From contig JBILDU010000087.1 of NCBI GenBank assembly GCA_044352465.1, positions 1 to 12,188 of the forward strand: DNA of 12,188 nucleotides, given 5' to 3'. This DNA comes from Bdellovibrionota bacterium (GTDB lineage: Bacteria > Bdellovibrionota_C > UBA2361). The notes under the pieces were generated by a model, which had not been told where the DNA came from, made no database searches, and saw only the letters and a program-made list of their open reading frames with translations. Numbering within the stretch: the stretch's first letter is position 1; every line of letters starts with the position of its first letter. Both the position numbers and the translations under genes were made by a program. Below, piece after piece: positions 1-10,027 of the stretch.

Positions 1-838
1 GCAACTCACGGAGGGTGCGGATCGCCCCCGCATAGTTCGCTCCCGATGAGGGTCCCGCTGGGATTCCACACCGGCGGATGAGGGTGAGCATACCGTCGAT
101 AGCGTCGGCGGAGCTCACGGCGACGAGGTCGTGGTAAGCCGCGCGGTGAAAGACCCCATTCTCCCACAGCTCAGCAGCGCTCCGGATACCCGGGATATTG
201 TCGTGAGCGTGCGTGGTGAGGCCGATGAGTTTTAAGTCTGGGTTGTGCTCTCGTAAAGTCGTGGCGGTGCCGCCTGAACTACCCGCGGTACCGACACCGG
301 CGATTAGGTAGTCGACCCGGGGGAGGTCACGGGCGATCTCAGCCCCGGTGGAGCGGGCGTGCTCCGCCGGGTTCGCGGGGTTGGTGAATTGGGAGGTGAA
401 AAAGAGCTGCTCCCCGCTCGCTGCAGCGCGCCGCTCGAGCTCGTATTGGGGGTCGTTTGGGTCGTTCGGGTCGAAACAATCGCTCGCCTGGGGAACTTCC
501 TCAACGGTAGCGCCCATGAGTTTCAATACATCTCTCTGCTCCGGCACGCGGGCGAGACCGCTCACGAGGGAGAACGGAATGCCCTCGCTCGCACACAGCG
601 CTTGGAGTGCTTTGGCTGTGTTCCCGCTTGAATTTTCAACAACGCCGGCGCCGACTCGTTTGAGTCGCTCGCGGTGCGGCGTCAACATGGCGTGGGCGAT
701 GCGGTCTTTGATAGAGCCGAACGGATTTAACAGCTCAAGTTTAGCGTAGAGTTGGACCCCGTCGCACCGGTGCACTGCGGCTGGAATCTCGATGAGGGGG
801 GTGTTTCCGATTATGTCGGCGAGAGAGGAGATAATCAT
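1..838 (-). CDS. Cysteine synthase-like PLP (fold-type II) enzyme, copy A; 3' end lies outside the window
   Basis: Absent from the ORF track; translated by hand from the ATG at 838: MIISSLADIIGNTPLIEIP...LYAKLELLNPFGSIKDRIA (PLP Lys)...ENSSGNTAKAL...FTSQFTNPAN...GVGTAGS...IPGIR...GPSSGA. The frame stays open to base 1. The start overlaps the upstream stop (ATGA, 835-838). Paralog of 4318..5700. Confidence 0.93.
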   Translation of the reverse strand, partial: MIISSLADIIGNTPLIEIPAAVHRCDGVQLYAKLELLNPFGSIKDRIAHAMLTPHRERLKRVGAGVVENSSGNTAKALQALCASEGIPFSLVSGLARVPEQRDVLKLMGATVEEVPQASDCFDPNDPNDPQYELERRAAASGEQLFFTSQFTNPANPAEHARSTGAEIARDLPRVDYLIAGVGTAGSSGGTATTLREHNPDLKLIGLTTHAHDNIPGIRSAAELWENGVFHRAAYHDLVAVSSADAIDGMLTLIRRCGIPAGPSSGANYAGAIRTLREL

Positions 839-2340
839 CGTAGCCTCCATGCGTGGGGGCGGTACTCGGGATCAAGCGCCCAGTCGAACACGTCCGCCCT
901 CTCAGTGACCGCGACTTTGCGGGCGACCGGTTGGTGAAGGGTGGATGATTCGGCGAAATCCATCATGTACGCCGCCGTGTTGATAAACGCGAGGATATCC
1001 CCCGATTCGATCGGGGTTGAGAAGTAGACCTTCCGCGGGCTTAAAAGCTCGTTGGCGACGCACAGGTTGCCGACGAGGAAGTATCCCCTCGGTTGCTGCT
1101 GACGTTCCGCTGAGGTGGGCAGCGCGATTGGATCGGTAAGTAGGGTAAGCTCGTGAGCGTTGAGATTAGAGCGGTTCATGGCGAGGCGGAGGAGGGGCTC
1201 GCCTCGCTCGGACGAGCGCACCGTGGTGACCGTGGCGAGGGTGAGCCCCGCTTGGTCGAGCAGCGCTCGTCCCGGTTCGATCCATACCTCGACGAGCGAC
1301 TCGCTGAGGAGCCTGCCGGCCGTTATCCCGTTGAAGCGGGGGAGGGGGGATTTAAGGAGGCTACACAGTTGGTCAGCCGGAGGCAGCTCCTCGGCGTGGT
1401 TCATGAAGCGGGGTTGTCCCTTTATCGTCGCGCCATCGACGTGAAACCCAAGCCCCGAACGGTTCCACGTATGGAGCGGCCCGTTACTGCGGAGAGAGTC
1501 CTTTAGAGCGAGGAGGAACCGGGCCCATTCGGCGGTGTCCTCGGCGTACCGGACCCGGAATCCACCGCCGAGATTGACAATGCGAGGACTATGACCGTGA
1601 CGGCGCGCCTCAAACAGGAGATGCAGTGATTCCTCGAGAGCTACCGCGCGATACTCGATGGAGTCGGTATTTAGATGAAAGGCAAAGCCGAGGAGTTCGA
1701 TCTCGTTTTTCATCGCATCGAGGCGATTCCACAACGCCGGGATGTCAGTTGGAGTTACTCCAAAGGTCCCGTCGCTGACGGCGAGGGAGCGCTGGGGGGC
1801 GAACCCGCTGAGTCGGATGAGGATACGGCTTGCGCCGCGGATACCGAGGGAGCGGCGGAGCGAGCGGATATCTTCGAGCTCAGTAAGGGAGTCGACGTTC
1901 ACGATTATGTCATGAAGGAGTGCCAAGCTCAGATACGTCTCATCCTTCGGCCCTGTGGCCTCGAGACGGTGGGAGGGGATTCCTGCGGAGAGAGCCGCCG
2001 CGAGCGAGCCGGCGGACGACACATCGACCCCGAGGTCTGTCGCGGCCACCTCGCGCAGAATCGCGGTGGAGCGGTTCGGCTTCGTTGTAAAAAAAATCCG
2101 TCCATCGATACCGTAGTGTTCGAATGTCTCCTGGAGGCTCGCCGCGTTTCGAATAACTTCGGTGGGAAAGATTAGATTGAGGGGGGAGCCGAGCGAACTT
2201 ACAAGCTGGTGCGCGGTCTTGGGGGCAGCGATGAGTTTTTGCGCCATCATGCCTAAGCGCGGGGCGAGGCCGGGGTACCCGGGCCCGAAAGATGTCCCGA
2301 CCGGCGCAGCTGGGGAGGATGTGGAACACATGTTTTCCAT
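835..2340 (-). CDS. Fold-type III PLP-dependent decarboxylase-like protein (Y4yA/LysA/Orn-DAP-Arg family), copy A
   Basis: 501 aa. Motifs FTTKPN (PLP Lys), FAFHL, VNLGGGF, IEPGRAL, GNLC (catalytic Cys position) and FINTAAY. The start could instead be the second ATG at 2331. Confidence 0.9.
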   Translation of the reverse strand: MENMCSTSSPAAPVGTSFGPGYPGLAPRLGMMAQKLIAAPKTAHQLVSSLGSPLNLIFPTEVIRNAASLQETFEHYGIDGRIFFTTKPNRSTAILREVAATDLGVDVSSAGSLAAALSAGIPSHRLEATGPKDETYLSLALLHDIIVNVDSLTELEDIRSLRRSLGIRGASRILIRLSGFAPQRSLAVSDGTFGVTPTDIPALWNRLDAMKNEIELLGFAFHLNTDSIEYRAVALEESLHLLFEARRHGHSPRIVNLGGGFRVRYAEDTAEWARFLLALKDSLRSNGPLHTWNRSGLGFHVDGATIKGQPRFMNHAEELPPADQLCSLLKSPLPRFNGITAGRLLSESLVEVWIEPGRALLDQAGLTLATVTTVRSSERGEPLLRLAMNRSNLNAHELTLLTDPIALPTSAERQQQPRGYFLVGNLCVANELLSPRKVYFSTPIESGDILAFINTAAYMMDFAESSTLHQPVARKVAVTERADVFDWALDPEYRPHAWRLR

Positions 2341-2352
2341 AAAACTTGTCGG

Positions 2353-2391
2353 ACTCTATCGTATTAAGCTCAGTAGTGCAACTTGGTTGCG
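2353..2391 (-). promoter_or_regulatory. Predicted sigma70 promoter (TTGCAC-N17-TAGAGT) overlapped by one GCAAC-N3-GTTGC operator
   Basis: On the minus strand the -35 is at 2376-2381 and the -10 at 2353-2358, with a 17-bp spacer. The palindromic box TGCAAC-ttg-GTTGCg at 2377-2391 matches the boxes at 4080-4116. Confidence 0.65.
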
Positions 2392-2835
2392 TTATGAGTG
2401 GTGGCAGCGTGGGCACCGTCCGAGCACGGCATGGGTGCTTCGCTCAACGAGATATCCGGGGGGGGTGGGTAGAGTGACCACCGGAGTCTTAGGCCCAAAG
2501 TCCGTCACTCCGCGACACATGATGCAGATAAAAAAGCTGCGGTGAGCGGAGTTGGTCGTAAGGTAATAGTGGGCTTCCCCACACACACCACCGATCGTTC
2601 CGACGAGCCCGTGAGCTGCAAGCTCGTTTAAAAAACGGTATACGGTCGAGCGGTTCACTCGGGGAGCGATCCGCATCGTAGCTCTCAGTATCTGTAGAGC
2701 CGTCAGCGGGGTCGGGGTGGTTTGTAAGAGTTCGAAGATGTAGCGCCTTTGGCGGCTACCTCGCCCAAAAAGGATAGCACCACCGGCGATCTGTTTCACA
2801 CCGGTGCAGCGCATCTGTCTCTCACGTTCCACCAC
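2392..2835 (-). CDS. Fur-family transcriptional regulator (Zur/PerR/Fur-like), atypical
   Basis: 147 aa. QRRYIFELL, winged-helix RSTVYRFLNEL..GLV, and two CxxC motifs (CIMC, GRCPRC). The GTG start is preceded by a GGAGG Shine-Dalgarno just after the upstream stop. Confidence 0.85.
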   Translation of the reverse strand: MVERERQMRCTGVKQIAGGAILFGRGSRQRRYIFELLQTTPTPLTALQILRATMRIAPRVNRSTVYRFLNELAAHGLVGTIGGVCGEAHYYLTTNSAHRSFFICIMCRGVTDFGPKTPVVTLPTPPGYLVERSTHAVLGRCPRCHHS

Positions 2836-2847
2836 GTCGTCCCTCCC

Positions 2848-4056
2848 CTACGCCCCGACGTGGGGCGTGTCCTCACCATCAAGCGCTACGGTCCAAACGG
2901 GAAACGGGTCCTCGAAATCTCGCCACGCCGCAGCGCCTGCGGCGAGTTCGAGGTCGGTCAGGAGACACCGATCGAGCATCGCGGTGAGCGCAGGTCGATC
3001 CATCTCTACCCCGATAAGGACGATCTCTTGCTTTCCCGGAACGGCGTTTTTAGCTGAAGTGAGGACCTCTTGCTCCGTACCGATTTGAGCCCAGAATCCC
3101 GCCGGCTCGGTGCGGCACGCCGCGCCAGCCTGTGACCATAATCCGGCGATCTCGGGGCGTGAGGCGAGCCAAAAGAAGCCCTTTGAGCGTACGACCCCAG
3201 GCCACTCAGACTTGATACACTCTGAGAATCGGGCAGGATGAAAGGGGCGATCGCGGCGATACACGAAGCTCGAAATGCCGTACTCCTCCGTCTCGGGGGT
3301 GTGTCCTCCAGCGAGCTCTTTGGCCCACCCGGCGCTCTGGGCGGCAACCTCAAACGAGAAACGTCGCGTGTTGAGTACCGTACCGAGATCAAGTTTGCTG
3401 AAGCGGGTGTGGACGATCCGCGCTCCGGGATTGAGCTTACGGATGATTCCCTCGATAAGTCGTAGCTTCTGCGGATCAACGAGATCGAGCTTGTTCAGCA
3501 CAACCACGTCCGCGAATTCGATCTGGTCGACCAAAAGGTCAACGATGGTGCGGTCATCGCTTTCATCGGCGGAGAGTCCCCGATCGAGTAGGTTTTCGGC
3601 TGATTCAAGATGGCTCAGAAAATTTGCGCCATCGACGACCGTCACCATCGTATCGAGTCGGGTAAGGGATGCTAAGGTGTTCCCGTCCTCGTCCTCGTAA
3701 GCGAAGCTTGCTGCTACCGGCATCGGTTCACCGATCCCGGTCGATTCGATGAGGAGGTAATCGTACCGTTTGGCCTCGGCGAGCTCCCGCACCTGTTCGA
3801 TGAGGTCTTCACGGAGGGTACAACAGATACACCCGTTCGACATCTCAACGAGCTTCTCTTCGGTGCGATCGAGCCGCGCCTCACCGTTTTTAACGAGCTC
3901 CGCATCGATATTCACTTCACTCATATCGTTGACGATGACGGCGACTTTGAGCCCTTCTCGATTAGAGAGAACGTGGTTCAAGAGAGTCGTTTTCCCGGCG
4001 CCGAGGAAGCCCGAGAGAACGGTGACGGGAAGTCGATTGAGAGTTTGTTTTTCCAT
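2848..4056 (-). CDS. COG0523/CobW-family metallochaperone GTPase, ZigA/YciC-like
   Basis: GFLGAGKTT (Walker A), [25 protein letters not shown] (CxCC), [27 protein letters not shown] and [12 protein letters not shown]. Start moved to ATG 4056 because the ORF-track start (4098) lies inside the operator palindrome and family similarity begins at LPVTVLSG. Confidence 0.95.
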
Positions 4057-4066
4057 AATGGCGTTG

Positions 4067-4116
4067 GTTGTACCAAAAACGCAACTCAGTTGCAACATTG
4101 TTGCAACTGAGTTGCG
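4067..4116 (-). promoter_or_regulatory. Triple operator (37-bp palindrome) over a predicted promoter TTGCAA-N17-TACAAC; probable Zur/Fur-family site
   Basis: 4080-4116 reads cgcaactcagttgcaaca-t-tgttgcaactgagttgcg, with perfect 18-bp arms. It contains GCAAC-N3-GTTGC at 4081, 4092 and 4103. The -35 is at 4090-4095 and the -10 at 4067-4072, preceded by TGn. Confidence 0.75.
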
Positions 4117-4317
4117 AGTGGGTGCGGGCTCGCACTACGGATAGGCGCTACGCCGCGTAATTAGCGGCGCGCGTGGGCGACTCATGACAATCCACGTCGG
4201 AAAAGAAACGGTTGCCCCCCACAAAGAGGGGCTAGTCCACAGTGATTTGCGAGAAAGCGTCCAGTCTAGGTCATTCCCGTGTGCTCGAAGGTTTGGATGG
4301 GGCCTCGCGGGTTAGCT

Positions 4318-5700
4318 TCACTCGGCACGAGCTCCGGAACCTAAAAAACCACCAGGCACCGCTTGAGAGAGGGGCATTGTGGCCGCAGTCTCCCCGGTAG
4401 AGCACGCTACTCCTGAACGCCACGCAGTGAGGCCTCCTTCAAGGGAGTAGCCCTGACCACCGAGACGGCAAAGCTGAGCTGCCAGACGGCGCGATTGCTC
4501 TCCAACTGGGCATACGAATAGAACAACCCGCTCTGGGCCAGTAAACGGCGTTCGGGCATCGAGGAGTCGCTCTAAAGTTTCAGTCGGTATACTCACCGCA
4601 CCGGGGAACGATCCTGCTTCAAAGGCGATCGGGGAGCGAATATCGATCACAAGGGCCCCCTTTTTTCGAACCCAACTCTCAGCCTCCACGAAGGAGATCG
4701 AAGGGGCACGACGGATGTGCTCCTCTGTCAGTTTAAAGATAGAGAGGGGGCGAGGGCGTCCCCCGAACAGCTCAGGGCGCCGCTCCCGGATATAGGAGAG
4801 GTACCACTCGACTCGGTCACAGACTATCGTAACGGCTGTGGCCCGGCGATCGAGCTTTCCATCAATCGCACGTAGGTACTCGAGCGTCCCCGAGAAATGC
4901 GCTCCTGACGATGGACCACCCATGACACCACATTCGCGCAGGAGGCGGAGCATCCCGTCGATCGCCTGAGCTGAATCAACAGAGATGATCGTTTCGTACT
5001 GCGCAGGATCAAAGATCCCTGCTCCCATAAGTTGATCAACGGTCCGGATCCCGGGGATAAAGTCACCTTTGCCTGCAGTAATCCCAATAAGTCGTAACTG
5101 CGGATTTACCTCACGGAGTCGCTCAGCGATGCCGAGCGTCGAGCCAGCGGTCCCCAAACCCGAGCAAAAAAAATCAACCGATCCCAGGTCGCTGAGGATC
5201 TCCTCGGCTGTGGTCTCCCGGTGTGTTCGGGGATTCATGATGTTCGTGAACTGGCTCGTGAAATGAAGCCTCCCCTTTGAGCGGAGGACTTCTCGCTCAA
5301 TGAGATACTGTGGATCGTTGGGGTCGCTCGGGTCGTAACAGCTCAACGACCCCGCGACCTCTTCAAGCTCCACACCCAGGAGTTTAAGGATGTCCTTTGT
5401 CTCCTGCACCTTCACCATTGCACTCACGAGCTTAAACGGAATCCCCGCTCGTCGCGCGAGAACCGCAAGCGCCTTTGCGGTATTGCCGCTTGAGTTTTCG
5501 ATGAGCTTTCCGTCGGTTCTTCGGATCTCATCGACAACTCCCTTGAGCATGCCCCACGCGATTCGATCTTTCACACTGCCGAAGGGATTAAAAAACTCAA
5601 GCTTTGCGTAGAGGTCGATATTTTTAAGCCCGGTTACCGTTGGGTTAATCCGTAAGAGGGGGGTCCCTCCGATCGCCTCAGTGATGTCCTCAAGAATCAT
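4318..5700 (-). CDS. Cysteine synthase-like PLP enzyme fused to a C-terminal rhodanese domain, copy B
   Basis: 460 aa. IGGTPL, AKLEFFNPFGSVKDR, ENSSGNT, SQFTN, GLGTAGS, IPGIR and GPSSGA. The rhodanese part reads VIDIR...FPGAVSIP...FVCPVGEQS...SLEGGLTAW. ATGA overlap with the upstream gene at 5697-5700. Confidence 0.93.
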   Translation of the reverse strand: MILEDITEAIGGTPLLRINPTVTGLKNIDLYAKLEFFNPFGSVKDRIAWGMLKGVVDEIRRTDGKLIENSSGNTAKALAVLARRAGIPFKLVSAMVKVQETKDILKLLGVELEEVAGSLSCYDPSDPNDPQYLIEREVLRSKGRLHFTSQFTNIMNPRTHRETTAEEILSDLGSVDFFCSGLGTAGSTLGIAERLREVNPQLRLIGITAGKGDFIPGIRTVDQLMGAGIFDPAQYETIISVDSAQAIDGMLRLLRECGVMGGPSSGAHFSGTLEYLRAIDGKLDRRATAVTIVCDRVEWYLSYIRERRPELFGGRPRPLSIFKLTEEHIRRAPSISFVEAESWVRKKGALVIDIRSPIAFEAGSFPGAVSIPTETLERLLDARTPFTGPERVVLFVCPVGEQSRRLAAQLCRLGGQGYSLEGGLTAWRSGVACSTGETAATMPLSQAVPGGFLGSGARAE

Positions 5701-7220
5701 CGCTCACTCCGTATTCGCCGCACGAGCACAGGGTTTACCACATCGTCGTCGAGACTAATGAAGTCTCCCTGGCGCTCAAATGCTGCAACCTTTCGCGCCA
5801 CATGTTGATGGAGAATCTCCGACTCTGCAAAATCCATGTGGTATGCGGCGGTATTTATGAATGCAACGAGATCTCCTCTTCCGAGGCTGAATCCAGGATA
5901 GACTTTTTGATATTGAATGAGGTCGCTCGCGATACAGAGATTCCCAAAGATAAAGTAAGAAGCTGTTGATTTCTCGCGCGGTGAACGCGGGATAAAGACC
6001 GGCTGGGTAAGGAGCTTTTGCTCGCGACTCAGAAGATTCGTATGATTCATCGACACCATCAAGAGAGGTGTCCCCGCGGCTGATTCCTTGACCGCTACCA
6101 CCTCGGTAACGGTGAATCCCGCTTGATCGAGGAGTGCTCGACCCGGCTCCACCCTCAGTTCGAGCATCATATCGCGGACGAGCTCCCCCACTGGACAATG
6201 ATCAAAGTAGGGAGAACGGGTATCGAGAAACGCCCCGAATTCCTGCGCTCCGACCGCAGTCGGGTAGTGATCTCCAACCGTGAGATTTCCCACGACTCGC
6301 CCTTGCTCAAGTCTGAGCCCCAGTCCTGTTCCATCCCAGGTGATCGGTTCCACTTTCCCAAGCAGTGATGCCCGAAGATAGCTCTGAAAATTGAGCCATT
6401 CCTCGTTATGTTCGGCGTAACGAATTTTAAAGCCCCCTCCGATATTGAGGATGCGTGGACGTAACCCGAGTCGATATGCTCGTCGAATCGTGTCTAACGA
6501 ATTCTCAAACGCGACGAGGCGTTCCTCACGTTCCCCTCCGAGAAGATGAAAATGAGTGCCGAGAAATGTTGCGCGGTCCCCGAATCGGTCGAATCGCTCA
6601 AGCACCGTGTCAACATCGTCGAGACGAATTCCAAAGGGGGTATCCGATGACGGGAAACGAACACGTTCCGAGGTGAATCCACTGAGACGAAGGAGAAGTT
6701 GCGCCGGTGGAAGACTCGTATCGGAGCGAACCAAGTCCTCGATCATCTCCAGTTCCGAAATGCTATCGACACTGACCGTGACGCCGTGAGCAAGGGCCAG
6801 ATATGCGTAGTCGAGATTCTTCGGTCCCGAGGCTTGAATGCGGTGGCCTGGCACTCCCTGGGAGAGAGTGTGCCGAAGCGCACCGGCCGACGAAACATCG
6901 ACCGGCGCACCGCTCTCTGCTAAAGCGGCGAGTATCGCTGACGAGCGATTAGGTTTGCTCGTGTAGAGTACCTGTCCGGCGATGCCTCGACTCGAGAGCT
7001 CAGCTGAGAAGCTCGCCCGGTTTTGAAGGACGACCTCGGGAAAGACCACGTTTACGAGCCCACCCTTTGCGGTGACGAGATCGAGGAGCGGTCGTGTGGC
7101 TGCGAGGTATCGAGCCGTCGTCTCGCCGATACGGGGAGTGATGGCCGCAATTTTTCGACATCCGCATGTCCCGCAACACACACTTGTCTCGGGGGTCTCG
7201 TTCGGCATTAAACGTTCCAA
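5697..7220 (-). CDS. Fold-type III PLP-dependent decarboxylase-like protein (Y4yA-like), copy B
   Basis: 507 aa. YTSKPN, THFHL, LNIGGGF, VEPGRAL, GNLC and FINTAAY; colinear with 835..2340. Start is TTG 7220 or ATG 7208. Confidence 0.9.
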   Translation of the reverse strand: MERLMPNETPETSVCCGTCGCRKIAAITPRIGETTARYLAATRPLLDLVTAKGGLVNVVFPEVVLQNRASFSAELSSRGIAGQVLYTSKPNRSSAILAALAESGAPVDVSSAGALRHTLSQGVPGHRIQASGPKNLDYAYLALAHGVTVSVDSISELEMIEDLVRSDTSLPPAQLLLRLSGFTSERVRFPSSDTPFGIRLDDVDTVLERFDRFGDRATFLGTHFHLLGGEREERLVAFENSLDTIRRAYRLGLRPRILNIGGGFKIRYAEHNEEWLNFQSYLRASLLGKVEPITWDGTGLGLRLEQGRVVGNLTVGDHYPTAVGAQEFGAFLDTRSPYFDHCPVGELVRDMMLELRVEPGRALLDQAGFTVTEVVAVKESAAGTPLLMVSMNHTNLLSREQKLLTQPVFIPRSPREKSTASYFIFGNLCIASDLIQYQKVYPGFSLGRGDLVAFINTAAYHMDFAESEILHQHVARKVAAFERQGDFISLDDDVVNPVLVRRIRSER

Positions 7221-7292: not shown

Positions 7293-7616
7293 TCATCCGC
7301 CGCAGCAAGACCGCTTGGTCGAACTGCTTGAATTATTCGTGGTGTCTGACGAGCCGAGGCGTGCACGGATGAGCGTGAGCGCCTTGGTCCCGTTGCCTTG
7401 GTCTGCTGGGAGTGCGAGGAGCTCTTTCAAGAGTTCCTCACGCTTCTTCGCGACCCGATCGAGGAGGAGAAGGGGACCAGTCGCACCACTCCCGGGGTTC
7501 TGAGCGAACCAGTCGAGAAAGGCGGGACGGAACTCATGACCAGCGAGAGCCGTGATCACAAGCCCTTCCTCCATCGTGACGCCCGGTGCACACAAGGCAT
7601 CATGGAAGATACACAT
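7293..7616 (-). CDS. Hypothetical 107-aa protein with N-terminal CxxHxxxC and C-terminal SCCGG
   Basis: Perfect AGGAGG (7623-7628) 6 nt before ATG 7616. This is the C-terminal part of the 200-aa track ORF; this start avoids overlap with the upstream membrane-protein gene. Confidence 0.7.
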   Translation of the reverse strand: MCIFHDALCAPGVTMEEGLVITALAGHEFRPAFLDWFAQNPGSGATGPLLLLDRVAKKREELLKELLALPADQGNGTKALTLIRARLGSSDTTNNSSSSTKRSCCGG

Positions 7617-8228: not shown

Positions 8229-8747
8229 CTAGCGGAGCGTTGGTGGTTTTGCGAGGCGGCGCTGCAGGGAGCGTCGATCCATGCCGAGCACCTTCGCCGC
8301 ACGCGTCACATTGCCGTTACAGTCAGCGAGGATTCGCTGAATATGATCCCACTCAACCTGTTCAAGCGATGGAAGCGGGATCTCCTCCGGCTTGAGGGAG
8401 AGGGGCGGCTCAAATGCTGCAAGTATCCGCTCAATAGAGCAAGGCTTCGTCAGGTATCCTACCGCGCCTCGTCGGATAGCCTCTTGTGTCGTCGCAATAC
8501 TACCAAATCCCGTCAGGACCACTGTGGGGACCGCCGGCGCATGGTCGCCGAGCCACGCGAGCAGGTCGAGTCCAGAGGCTCCTCCCATCCGCAGATCGAC
8601 AAGCACTCGTTCGGGTAATTCCGTCTTGAGTAGGTTTATCGCCTCATCGGTGCTTGGGGCAGCCATCACGGAATGGCCACGTTTTTCAAGCGCCGTGCGC
8701 AAGCGACTGCGATACACGGCATCATCATCGACAATTAGGTACCTCAT
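8229..8747 (-). CDS. regA: RegA/PrrA/RoxR-family response regulator (receiver + Fis-type HTH)
   Basis: LIVDDD, VDLRM, LTGFGSIAT, YLTKP and the C-terminal LEQVEWDHIQRIL..CNGNVTRAAKVLGMDRRSLQRRLAK. Confidence 0.92.
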   Translation of the reverse strand: MRYLIVDDDAVYRSRLRTALEKRGHSVMAAPSTDEAINLLKTELPERVLVDLRMGGASGLDLLAWLGDHAPAVPTVVLTGFGSIATTQEAIRRGAVGYLTKPCSIERILAAFEPPLSLKPEEIPLPSLEQVEWDHIQRILADCNGNVTRAAKVLGMDRRSLQRRLAKPPTLR

Positions 8748-10027
8748 TGACTCGCCCTAGAAATCGCTACACCACGCAGGTAGAAGCTGACGGTGGTCCC
8801 GTGATTCGGTCGACTTTCAATCGATAATTGACCACCGTATCTCTCGATAAAGAGGTTCGCGACAAAGAGACCGAGCCCCATCCCCCGACTCGCTGCTTTC
8901 GTCGAGAAGAACGGCTCACCTACTCGCTGGAGGATTTCAGCGGGGAAACCACACCCGTGGTCGGAGACCACCACGCTTAGATCCGTACCGTTTACACAAA
9001 GGAACACCATCACCTCGGTGCCCTCATCGCTCGCCTCGATCGCATTCTTAACGAGGGCATGAAGGACATGAACGAATCCATCGATCGGAAGAGCGATTCT
9101 TTGGGCAGAATCATATGAGCAACGGACGCGAGCCTGAGTCGTCTTTTCAAACCGGTTGAGAGCTTCGCTGACGCACTCTCCAAGGGAGGCTCGGCGCGGC
9201 GTGTCCGCAAAGAGAGCCCCTGAAGAGCTATTCAGCCGGCCCAGAGCGTCAGTGCATCGCGCGAGCTCGGATTGGAGAACCTCGACGGGTTGGCGAAGCT
9301 CTGGGCTTGCGGACGGACTATTACTCACACCCTTGATCTCCTCGAGTGCAAAGACCATAGACCCGAGTGGGGTTCCGAGCTCGTGGGCGACCGAGGCCGC
9401 GACGGTAGTAATCGCCGCTAACTTCTGCTCGTTCGACCGCCGTCGCTCCAACTCGGATTCGTGCGACATAATCTCAGCGCGCATGCGCTGAATCGCTCCA
9501 CTTACGAGCAACGCGAGGATGACAAAACTGACTAACATCCCTTGAAGATGCAGATCGAATTCCCCACTCCCATGATGATGGTGATGTCCTCCGGAAAGGG
9601 CAGGGATCGGCACGTGCCAACGAAAGAGAGCGACGTAGCACGCTGTCGCGAGAGTGGTAAGTCCCCACGTCCATCGGGAATCGAGGAGCATCGCTGCGAG
9701 CATGATTTGGAGAAGGAGTAGGGTGCTAAAGGGGTTGGCATGTCCGCCGTAGGCGATAAGTAGGGCGGTTAGAAGAAAGATGTCGACCACCATGACGGTG
9801 CCCCGCATCCAGGTGGGTAACGAGTCATGTCGTCGCACAAGGAACTCAAGTCCGGCATTTGAAGCGATTAACAGTAGTGAGACGACAACGAAGGTCGTAG
9901 CCTCGAGAGTAAGCCCGAGCACATGGACTGCAAAAAGGAAGACGATCGTCTGACCGAGCGCCGCGAGCCAGCGTATCGTTATGAGCCACTTAAGCCCGTC
10001 TCGGCGCGTTCGTGTCGATTGAAACAT
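8744..10027 (-). CDS. regB: RegB/PrrB/RoxS-family membrane sensor histidine kinase
   Basis: N-terminal IRWLA..GQ, multiple TM helices, GGHANPF (GGxxNPF), H-box AHELGTPL, a conserved-position Cys (ARC), and the ATPase motifs NAIEA, DHGCGF, PFFSTK and GMGLGL. ATGA overlap with regA. Confidence 0.92.
   Translation of the reverse strand: MFQSTRTRRDGLKWLITIRWLAALGQTIVFLFAVHVLGLTLEATTFVVVSLLLIASNAGLEFLVRRHDSLPTWMRGTVMVVDIFLLTALLIAYGGHANPFSTLLLLQIMLAAMLLDSRWTWGLTTLATACYVALFRWHVPIPALSGGHHHHHGSGEFDLHLQGMLVSFVILALLVSGAIQRMRAEIMSHESELERRRSNEQKLAAITTVAASVAHELGTPLGSMVFALEEIKGVSNSPSASPELRQPVEVLQSELARCTDALGRLNSSSGALFADTPRRASLGECVSEALNRFEKTTQARVRCSYDSAQRIALPIDGFVHVLHALVKNAIEASDEGTEVMVFLCVNGTDLSVVVSDHGCGFPAEILQRVGEPFFSTKAASRGMGLGLFVANLFIERYGGQLSIESRPNHGTTVSFYLRGVAISRASQ

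Follow-up and report, generated by a model that had tools for sequence, protein, structure and literature searches.

In staphyloferrin B synthesis, a CysK-fold enzyme that performs beta-replacement on O-phosphoserine (SbnA) and a fold-type III decarboxylase (SbnH) work in one pathway, in which SbnH acts on a citryl conjugate. Enzymes of these two kinds are encoded side by side, and twice, in a 12,188-bp stretch of DNA from an uncultured freshwater predatory-type bacterium whose relatives are Bdellovibrionota. This stretch, called the window below, is the entire contig C26 of a 3.13-Mb genome (G000; 170 contigs, 95% complete). Each gene pair consists of dec, which encodes a decarboxylase-like enzyme of the Y4yA family dependent on pyridoxal phosphate (PLP), and cysL, which encodes a cysteine-synthase-like enzyme with a fused rhodanese domain. 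The module is best read as a pathway controlled by metal starvation that would bring persulfide sulfur into a serine-derived amino acid and decarboxylate it to what we infer is a small N,S ligand; the probability of this reading is put at about 45%.

An earlier reading of the window made from its letters (the sequence-only reading) had proposed an SbnA/SbnH-type logic of beta-substitution followed by decarboxylation. The analogy is a fair one, and in a sibling cluster on a Sulfitobacter plasmid (L094) an annotated sbnA, a FAD/NAD protein gene and a Y4yA gene are translationally coupled. Staphyloferrin B synthesis is, however, iron-regulated. The present module has no SbnB partner, and both cysL copies score 141 bits with the SbnA model TIGR03945, far below its cut-off of 349.95. 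Profile searches of the window and of the adjoining contig C25 gave no synthetase of the type independent of nonribosomal peptide synthetases (NIS synthetase), no SbnB-like gene and no nonribosomal peptide synthetase, so the earlier statement to this effect for the window holds for C25 as well.

Other described systems share single features with the module. Mycobacterium tuberculosis CysM takes its sulfur from the protein-bound thiocarboxylate of CysO and not from free sulfide; its product is cysteine, and no decarboxylase is involved. It has the PGIR loop in common with cysL, for which the donor would be the persulfide of the fused rhodanese domain. The cluster described here further resembles the systems of the CooC/MinD and COG0523 (ZigA) nucleoside triphosphatases (NTPases) in having a P-loop ATPase with a Cys motif and a COG0523 GTPase with CxCC. 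The ATPase motif is C-x-H, whereas that of CooC is C-x-C, and the ZigA score of the GTPase lies under the cut-off. The aes operon of Amycolatopsis japonicum is said, with reference to the 2016 work of Spohn et al., to combine SbnA- and SbnB-like genes with a gene resembling that of diaminopimelate (DAP) decarboxylase. A passage of PMC6103462 treats [S,S]-ethylenediaminedisuccinate (EDDS) as Zur-controlled and as an accepted zincophore, and the EDDS work of Spohn et al. is cited there and in a passage of PMC9248904. The aes pathway is like the module in the logic of a small ligand controlled by metal starvation, in its case through Zur, but makes a product without sulfur and lacks the fused rhodanese, the desulfurase and the CooC-like ATPase.

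Among solved or characterised proteins, only the fungal AMA synthase (8H4H/8H4Q) and Fda4 of Fusarium share the PLP-plus-rhodanese-like build. Their products are metal chelators or L-2,3-diaminopropionate (L-Dap), according to part of PMC12751119. These enzymes carry out C-N chemistry, are 21% identical and, unlike the module, are coupled to neither a decarboxylase nor a desulfurase. Their rhodanese part gives no sequence-level match, and they do not have the C-x-D-P-x-D-P-N-D-P loop. The name-giving Y4yA of Sinorhizobium fredii is encoded next to a cysteine-synthase gene in the cluster y4yB-y4yA-y4xP-y4xO-y4xN-y4xM, which differs from the module in being induced by flavonoids and in its position within a type III secretion locus. 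The cysteine synthase of this cluster presumably lacks a rhodanese domain, and y4xN is taken to be IucA/IucC-like. The function of y4yA and y4xP is called enigmatic in a section of a 2014 review (PMC3973906). No characterisation of the bacterial dec/cysL module was found in the literature on Y4yA, zincophores, AMA synthase, EDDS and Zur regulons, and no mention of the module's terms was found in portions of a metallostasis review (PMC11672702). New here are the two copies with apparently different control, a putative operator, the probable recent exchange of a cassette and the family of a small neighbouring gene, orf107.

Every gene of interest lies on the minus strand of the window, and the genes were assigned by matches to Pfam and NCBIfam profiles. 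In reading order they are a RegB/RegA-type pair, orf107, dec1, cysL1, a 219-bp spacer, the gene of a ZigA-like COG0523 GTPase, a Fur-family gene, dec2 and cysL2, which runs off the contig end. The first pair consists of dec1 (5697..7220, 507 aa; PF02784 78.7 bits, with PF00278) and cysL1 (4318..5700, 460 aa; a CysM-like PLP domain, PF00291 157 bits, and a rhodanese domain, PF00581 41 bits). The second consists of dec2 (835..2340, 501 aa; PF02784 71 bits) and the part of cysL2 that encodes the N-terminal 283 aa, again a CysM-like PLP enzyme (2..850; PF00291 180 bits). The two dec proteins are 41% identical across 488 aa (E 4e-119) and the two cysL proteins 50% identical across 279 aa. The dec/cysL junction reads ATGA in both copies, in copy 2 only if cysL2 begins at its second ATG (838), which aligns with the start of cysL1. 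The earlier description of two diverged, colinear, ATGA-coupled pairs with a COG0523 GTPase gene and a Fur-family gene between them is thereby confirmed. Since contigs from independent runs bridge the cysL1/zigA junction with zero differences (X6 2612-4634, X4 4000-4507), the arrangement of these genes is not an assembly chimera. A complex prediction for dec1 and cysL1 gave a score of 0.01, which is uninformative either way.

The dec proteins share 32-38% identity over 87-94% of the query with many actinomycete proteins that NCBI names Y4yA family PLP-dependent enzyme (E 1e-73 to 1e-85); the name is used for relatives in records of Streptomyces, Micromonospora, Actinoplanes and Nocardia. Y4yA-type proteins of rhizobia and of Sinorhizobium plasmids are about 30% identical to dec1. 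Family membership rests on this full-length similarity, and no hidden Markov model (HMM) named Y4yA turned up in the NCBIfam search. With the LysA model TIGR01048, dec1 scores 96.7 and dec2 102.5 bits against a curated cut-off of 297.9. The residues K89, D108, H225, G261-G262, E358-P-G-R361, C429 and Y460 are invariant in 25/25 sequences of alignment A2, both copies included, and D433 is nearly so; dec2 has all the invariant columns. We take these residues to be the full catalytic set known from ornithine and DAP decarboxylases. The PLP lysine, His, Gly loop, EPGR, Cys and C-terminal Tyr that mark group IV (fold-type III) PLP decarboxylases are all present. In the AlphaFold 2 (AF2) model of dec1, with a predicted local distance difference test (pLDDT) value of 90.3, the closest folds are those of D-ornithine/D-lysine and meso-DAP decarboxylases at 16-20% identity.

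For cysL1, all of the best 120 homologues contain both PF00291 and PF00581. The cysL copies score 127-169 bits with the CysK/CysM models TIGR01136/01138/01139, whose cut-offs are 344-394. The PLP Lys, the SSGNT loop, the Gly loop and the CysM-like PGIR loop are invariant in the cysL alignment, and so is the family-specific C-x-D-P-x-D-P-N-D-P loop, which is matched by no solved chain. Cys397 of cysL1 (in VCPVGEQS) aligns with the active-site Cys of GlpE, is invariant in 25/25 sequences (alignment A1) and stands in a CxxGxxS/R loop, which predicts a catalytic rhodanese. The AF2 model of cysL1 (pLDDT 85.3) has AMA synthase 8h4q as its top Foldseek match (E 3.8e-23, 469 columns, 21% identity), with E-values for AMA synthase, CysM, O-acetylserine sulfhydrylase (OASS) and cystathionine beta-synthase (CBS) within one order of magnitude. 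A profile search with cysL gave 153.4 bits for CysM 2bht, 150.7 for the lanthionine-forming 5xem and 143.8 for AMA synthase 8h4q. In its two domains, PF00291 and PF00581, cysL1 has the architecture of AMA synthase and Fda4; these scores do not place it closer to AMA synthase than to CysM.

To the left of the window, where the sequence-only reading had pointed, C25 completes cysL2 with a rhodanese domain and continues the cluster. The rest of cysL2, its linker and rhodanese domain, is encoded at the end of C25 (L001 9820..9347) and shows 39% identity to residues 292-444 of cysL1. A single contig of the same-genus genome G123 covers window 1-2224 and then, 30 nt on, the end of C25; contigs from public runs extend about 5.7 kb beyond window position 1 (X1, which may be the source run, and the independent X5). 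The rhodanese Cys is also present in cysL2, which retains 52/56 of the N-terminal and 14/14 of the C-terminal family-invariant residues. Because the catalytic residues of dec1, dec2, cysL1 and cysL2 are intact, both copies of the module look functional by alignment.

At least 599 related stretches came up in a scan with one genome per species; all counts refer to the best 80 loci (51 actinobacterial and 29 others), with neighbours counted within 10 kb by tblastn and HMM. The carriers among them span about ten phyla: Bdellovibrionota including Micavibrio, Melainabacteria, one cyanobacterium, three Patescibacteria, Bacillota, metagenome-assembled genomes of gamma- and alphaproteobacteria, and about 50 actinomycetes. 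In 80/80 loci a Y4yA-like gene lies immediately 5' of cysL on the same strand. The junction is a 4-nt overlap in 45 loci (ATGA 38, GTGA 6, TTGA 1), lies within 30 nt in 34 and measures 363 nt in one. Within the phylum of the source genome, a Y4yA-like gene (E <1e-40) occurs in 24/124 genomes and in 17 of the 73 high-quality ones, with at least two copies in eight.

The commonest neighbour is a cysteine desulfurase (61/80 loci; 49/51 actinobacterial, 12/29 others); the enzymes of Micavibrio are IscS-like, and those of Bacillales and of the candidate phyla radiation (CPR) belong to a non-orthologous, SufS-like type. MinD-like ATPases accompany 22 loci, all of them non-actinobacterial (22/29 against 0/51). 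Fur-family genes are found at 18 loci (14/29 non-actinobacterial), almost all within 3.6 kb, COG0523 genes at 14 and ZnuA genes at six. In Micavibrio, the operons also encode membrane proteins that contain long runs of His, a regulator whose best match is Zur and a protein bearing the motifs HxH and CPAC. A CPR locus (L026) has a znuA and ABC-3 permease set 3' of the module, two loci have MerC-like genes, and Streptomyces loci have an L28 paralogue beside COG0523. On a 1.17-Mb Dojkabacteria chromosome, a four-gene core of MinD-like ATPase, dec, cysL and desulfurase stands next to a Fur-family gene. Exporters are patchy among the neighbours (MacB 4/80, RND 4/80). Sibling Y4yA clusters have MFS, MATE, RND or MacB exporters; one on a Mycobacterium plasmid (L095) consists of a CysK-family gene, an MFS gene, an ArsR/SmtB regulator gene, Y4yA and a MATE gene, with a Tn3 transposase adjacent.

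Between the two pairs of the window lie the GTPase gene (2848..4098; PF02492 188 bits and PF07683 78 bits, GCICCT motif) and the gene of a divergent Fur-family regulator (2392..2835; 147 aa, two CxxC pairs). Both Pfam domains place the GTPase in COG0523. With the ZigA model NF038288 it scores 567.4 bits against a cut-off of 600, and the match begins at residue 23; the real start of zigA is likely the internal ATG at 4056. The best NCBIfam matches of the Fur-family protein, which is 99% identical to the protein of L002, are PerR, Irr, Fur and Zur, all far under cut-off. The sequence-only reading had called the two genes a zinc-homeostasis pair; with the Zur model PRK11639, the Fur-family protein scores 20 bits against a cut-off of 167.

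The putative operator is the palindrome GCAAC-N3-GTTGC. Three overlapping exact sites, at 4081, 4092 and 4103, occupy 4081..4115 before zigA, and one further exact site (GCAACTTGGTTGC, 2378..2390) lies right after the fur stop and 38-50 nt ahead of the dec2 start. The genome of 3.13 Mb contains 6 non-overlapping exact sites, 4 of them at promoter positions on C25 and C26: two before zigA (the third, at 4092, overlaps them), one before dec2 and one, on C25, in the promoter from which the ThiO-like gene and the long CobW-like gene diverge. Another site, on C97 (76850; L092 2851-2863), is ahead of a gene for a MerC-family membrane protein, by the genome's second, more typical Fur gene, and the sixth is within an unrelated gene. 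With 10 fixed bases about 3 chance sites are expected genome-wide, so the clustering and not the total is noteworthy. The same exact motif recurs in related genomes: L015 has it 28-40 nt ahead of the start of its dec2 orthologue and again in the thiO-cobW interval, L002 has it before zigA and after fur, and in L003 and L005 it separates a pair of a third type from a CobW-like gene; L005 has a further copy before a Fur-family gene. The palindrome may therefore, in view of the site at the MerC-like gene, define a small metal regulon, and as a putative shared operator it ties copy 2 to the COG0523 genes. It is absent before orf107 and dec1. Since the palindrome stands at copy 2 and not at copy 1, and the order regB-regA-orf107-dec-cysL is kept with copy 1 in L002, L003 and L004, the two copies would appear to be under different control. 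The RegB/RegA redox two-component pair may control copy 1.

The fixed gene pair, the catalytic rhodanese, the repeated recruitment of non-orthologous desulfurases and the presence of metal regulators of unrelated families argue for a small-molecule pathway used in metal shortage. Gene content, coupling, conservation, intact active sites and the shared palindrome are observed; we infer the substrates, product, metal and box-binding protein of the pathway as follows. A cysteine desulfurase, here a housekeeping enzyme encoded elsewhere, would charge the catalytic Cys of the rhodanese domain with sulfane sulfur. The fused CysM-like PLP domain would turn O-phospho- or O-acetylserine into aminoacrylate and take the tethered persulfide, possibly twice, to give a cysteine- or lanthionine-type amino acid that bears a thiol, persulfide or thioether group. 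The coupled Y4yA enzyme, which is DAP-decarboxylase-like, would then take off a carboxyl group, so that a small cysteamine- or thialysine-type N,S ligand remains. Handling of the metal, most likely zinc, would fall to the COG0523 GTPases and the CooC/MinD-like ATPase. Copy 2 (zigA-fur-dec2-cysL2-minD-like, with the ThiO-like and CobW-like genes adjacent) would be repressed by the Fur-family protein via the GCAAC-N3-GTTGC boxes, and the box-free copy 1 (regBA-orf107-dec1-cysL1) would presumably be under other control. Compared with the earlier proposal of an uncharacterised metallophore or sulfur-metabolite pathway, the coupled module and its metal context are retained, while the partners of the persulfide relay, that is, the fused rhodanese and the desulfurase of 61/80 loci, had been overlooked.

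Several results weigh against a metal-starvation pathway of this kind. Fur, COG0523, ZnuA or His-rich genes were found by tblastn within 10 kb in just 29/80 loci, and most actinobacterial loci have none; the metal-related neighbourhood that had been anticipated for homologous pairs recurs, with Fur/Zur-like regulators, COG0523, ZnuA and His-rich proteins, in a minority of loci, and a sibling cluster has ArsR/SmtB. The local Fur-family protein has a weak family score (PF01475 45 bits). Known Fur/Zur boxes are AT-rich, unlike GCAAC-N3-GTTGC, and when two mismatches are allowed, the window has 7 sites against a mean of 5.0, a number reached by 55 of 200 shuffles, which is chance level. No exporter, receptor or uptake system was found on C26 or C25, so the window does not have the exporter and receptor of a cluster for a secreted metallophore, as had been considered. 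It would seem circular for a desulfurase to supply an enzyme of the cysteine-synthase kind, unless something other than cysteine is made. Furthermore, the rhodanese domain need not carry sulfur, because the fungal AMA synthase and Fda4 of the same build do C-N chemistry. A broader version of the sulfur pathway is conceivable but doubtful: a widespread undescribed persulfide route to N,S metal ligands ('thia-amines') of one or two serine-derived units, present from CPR epibionts to Streptomyces and used under starvation for zinc or another metal, with the two differently controlled sets here (redox two-component pair and Fur-family box) giving two products or operating regimes.

The main alternative, itself unlikely, is nitrogen chemistry of the AMA synthase, Fda4 or EDDS type by the same enzymes. 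Here the CysK-like domain would couple O-phosphoserine with the nitrogen of an amino acid; either 2,3-diaminopropionate, freed by the ThiO-like oxidase, or the conjugate itself would then be decarboxylated by the Y4yA enzyme to give an ethylenediamine-type ligand, the rhodanese domain being structural or regulatory. AMA synthase 8h4q is indeed the top Foldseek match for the whole two-domain model, and its profile match extends beyond the PLP domain, but its identity is 21%, CysM, OASS and CBS score about equally, and the C-x-D-P-x-D-P-N-D-P motif occurs in no solved chain. A FAD enzyme as partner would have parallels in Fusarium, where Fda4 and the FAD oxidoreductase Fda3 make L-Dap (part of PMC12751119), and on the Sulfitobacter plasmid with its coupled sbnA, FAD/NAD protein and Y4yA genes. 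The copy-2 cassettes of the source genome and of L015 both include a ThiO-like FAD oxidase, which among the 80 loci occurs in just one besides the source genome. Zur-controlled EDDS provides a precedent as an accepted zincophore (PMC6103462, in part), whereas the rhodanese Cys, invariant in 25/25 sequences and found in both copies, and the desulfurases of two unrelated types in 61/80 loci speak against a nitrogen route. It is equally improbable that the module acts inside the cell and yields no secreted ligand, either as a sulfur/metal trafficking unit for assembling or repairing a metal centre in shortage, with the CooC-like and COG0523 proteins as insertases, or as a zinc-sparing bypass of a step that depends on zinc. 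Such a role would agree with the lack of a conserved exporter or receptor among the 80 loci, with the presence of the module in tiny CPR genomes such as that of Dojkabacteria, with two kinds of metallochaperone-type NTPase in the cluster and with small proteins bearing Cys/His motifs. Zur regulons also often include zinc-independent replacements. However, the cluster shows no evident client metalloenzyme, it is not obvious what a decarboxylase would do in cluster assembly, and the sibling clusters have MFS, MATE, RND or MacB exporters.

Most carriers belong to Bdellovibrionota, Micavibrio, Melainabacteria, Patescibacteria and Streptomyces/Nocardia, which would suit a lysine or DAP analogue (for example, lanthionine converted to thialysine) that predators, epibionts and actinomycetes direct at their prey or competitors. 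With 150.7 bits against 153.4 for CysM, cysL resembles the lanthionine-forming enzyme 5xem of Fusobacterium about as closely as CysM, and 5xem also gave the best local hit; the closest dec folds act on DAP-like diamino acids. Such an antimetabolite weapon is nevertheless very unlikely: its basis is lifestyle labels and weak similarity alone, no immunity gene is evident, and the Fur/Zur, COG0523 and ZnuA context and the shared operator are left unexplained. Hardly credible is a duplicated set of ordinary housekeeping LysA and CysM/CysK. The best NCBIfam names of the two genes are lysA and cysKM, and elsewhere in the 95%-complete genome no LysA exceeds the curated cut-off, the next best being long SpeA-like frames on C168 and C162. 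The scores, however, reach just one third to one half of the curated cut-offs (lysA 97-102 bits against 298, cysKM 153-169 against 344), the family is separately named Y4yA in actinomycete records, the rhodanese fusion, strict coupling and metal context are foreign to LysA and CysM, and a separate CysK homologue of the genome lies on C52. By the curated cut-offs, the two enzymes are neither ordinary LysA nor ordinary CysK/CysM, which agrees with the sequence-only reading.

If the persulfide pathway is real, the labels 'diaminopimelate decarboxylase' and 'cysteine synthase B' now given to the gene pair in hundreds of species are wrong, and the pair marks a hitherto uncharacterised pathway of metal starvation in which cysteine desulfurases are connected with a rhodanese and two PLP enzymes. 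A sulfur-based branch would then be added to the Zur-controlled ligand pathways (EDDS, opine metallophores), and the COG0523 and CooC-like NTPases would gain a defined biosynthetic partner. The same reading could explain the 'enigmatic' y4yA/y4xP genes of rhizobia, and the operator would offer a handle for regulon prediction in uncultured Bdellovibrionota.

The relation between the two copies is not that of the duplication assumed earlier. DNA identity to G123 is 98.6% for zigA-fur, 97.7% for dec2-cysL2, 89.7% for the end of cysL2 with the MinD-like and 198-aa genes, 81.8% for the ThiO-like and CobW-like genes, 73% for orf107-dec1-cysL1 and about 68% for regA-regB. Window 2297-4116 is near-identical to L002 4-1823, and window 1-2224 to L096 1-2224. 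The block of 98.6% identity stops at 4116, exactly at the operator array. In G123, the cassette is on the opposite side of the regBA unit; a simple inversion was considered as the cause of this placement and dropped, there being no L002 match for window positions >9743. From the identity profile and the edge of the block at the array, copy 2 with fur and zigA would be a recently exchanged cassette beside a resident copy under different control, and not a tandem duplicate. The comparison points to recent horizontal exchange or recombination of copy 2 together with its regulator and GTPase. In a quick tree of 53 rows, with 6 of roughly 38 Streptomyces loci included, dec1 clusters with L002-L005 and dec2 is sister to L015 (support 100), both within a single Bdellovibrionota clade; a deep branch of its own holds the second pairs found in L003 and L005. 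These pairs (L003 13253-16034, L005 8233-11017) are a third dec/cysL type, whose identity to copy 1 is about 30% and 38%, and are divergent from a long CobW-like gene with the operator between.

Ahead of dec1 lies orf107 (7293..7616, 107 aa), which has an AGGAGG ribosome-binding site and encodes a protein that begins with MCIFH and ends with KRSCCGG. Its homologues stand directly ahead of dec in L002, in L003 and L004 (as a tandem double) and in L006. The family has the N-terminus MC-x-[FY]-H and a CC motif at the end, and the Micavibrio His-rich membrane proteins share this type of N-terminus. No Pfam family matched orf107 at E up to 1. Structure-atlas candidates for it were dropped, with scores <0.9 and template modelling (TM) scores <0.5. 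Like the rhodanese fusion and the operator palindromes, this gene had gone unremarked in the sequence-only reading. The RegB/RegA-type (ActS/ActR) pair is located at 8229..10027 (NF033792 225 bits and NF033791 138 bits, both under cut-off), and its kinase has a His run in the membrane part.

On C25, the cluster goes on with the MinD/CooC-like ATPase gene (L001 8357-9301, minus strand; GKGGSGKT P-loop), the 198-aa gene, the divergent ThiO-like FAD oxidase gene and the long CobW-like gene (573 aa). The ATPase family has, besides the P-loop, an invariant G..C.H (C-x-H) motif, which could be a metal site at the dimer interface. The 198-aa gene has no family match and no BLAST match within the 80 loci. 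No cysteine desulfurase dedicated to the cluster is encoded nearby; the two found in the genome are on C139 and, beside mnmA, on C23. The far end of C25 carries a PIN-domain gene (L001 435-794, plus strand), a gene for a trypsin-like protease and a BamE-like gene.

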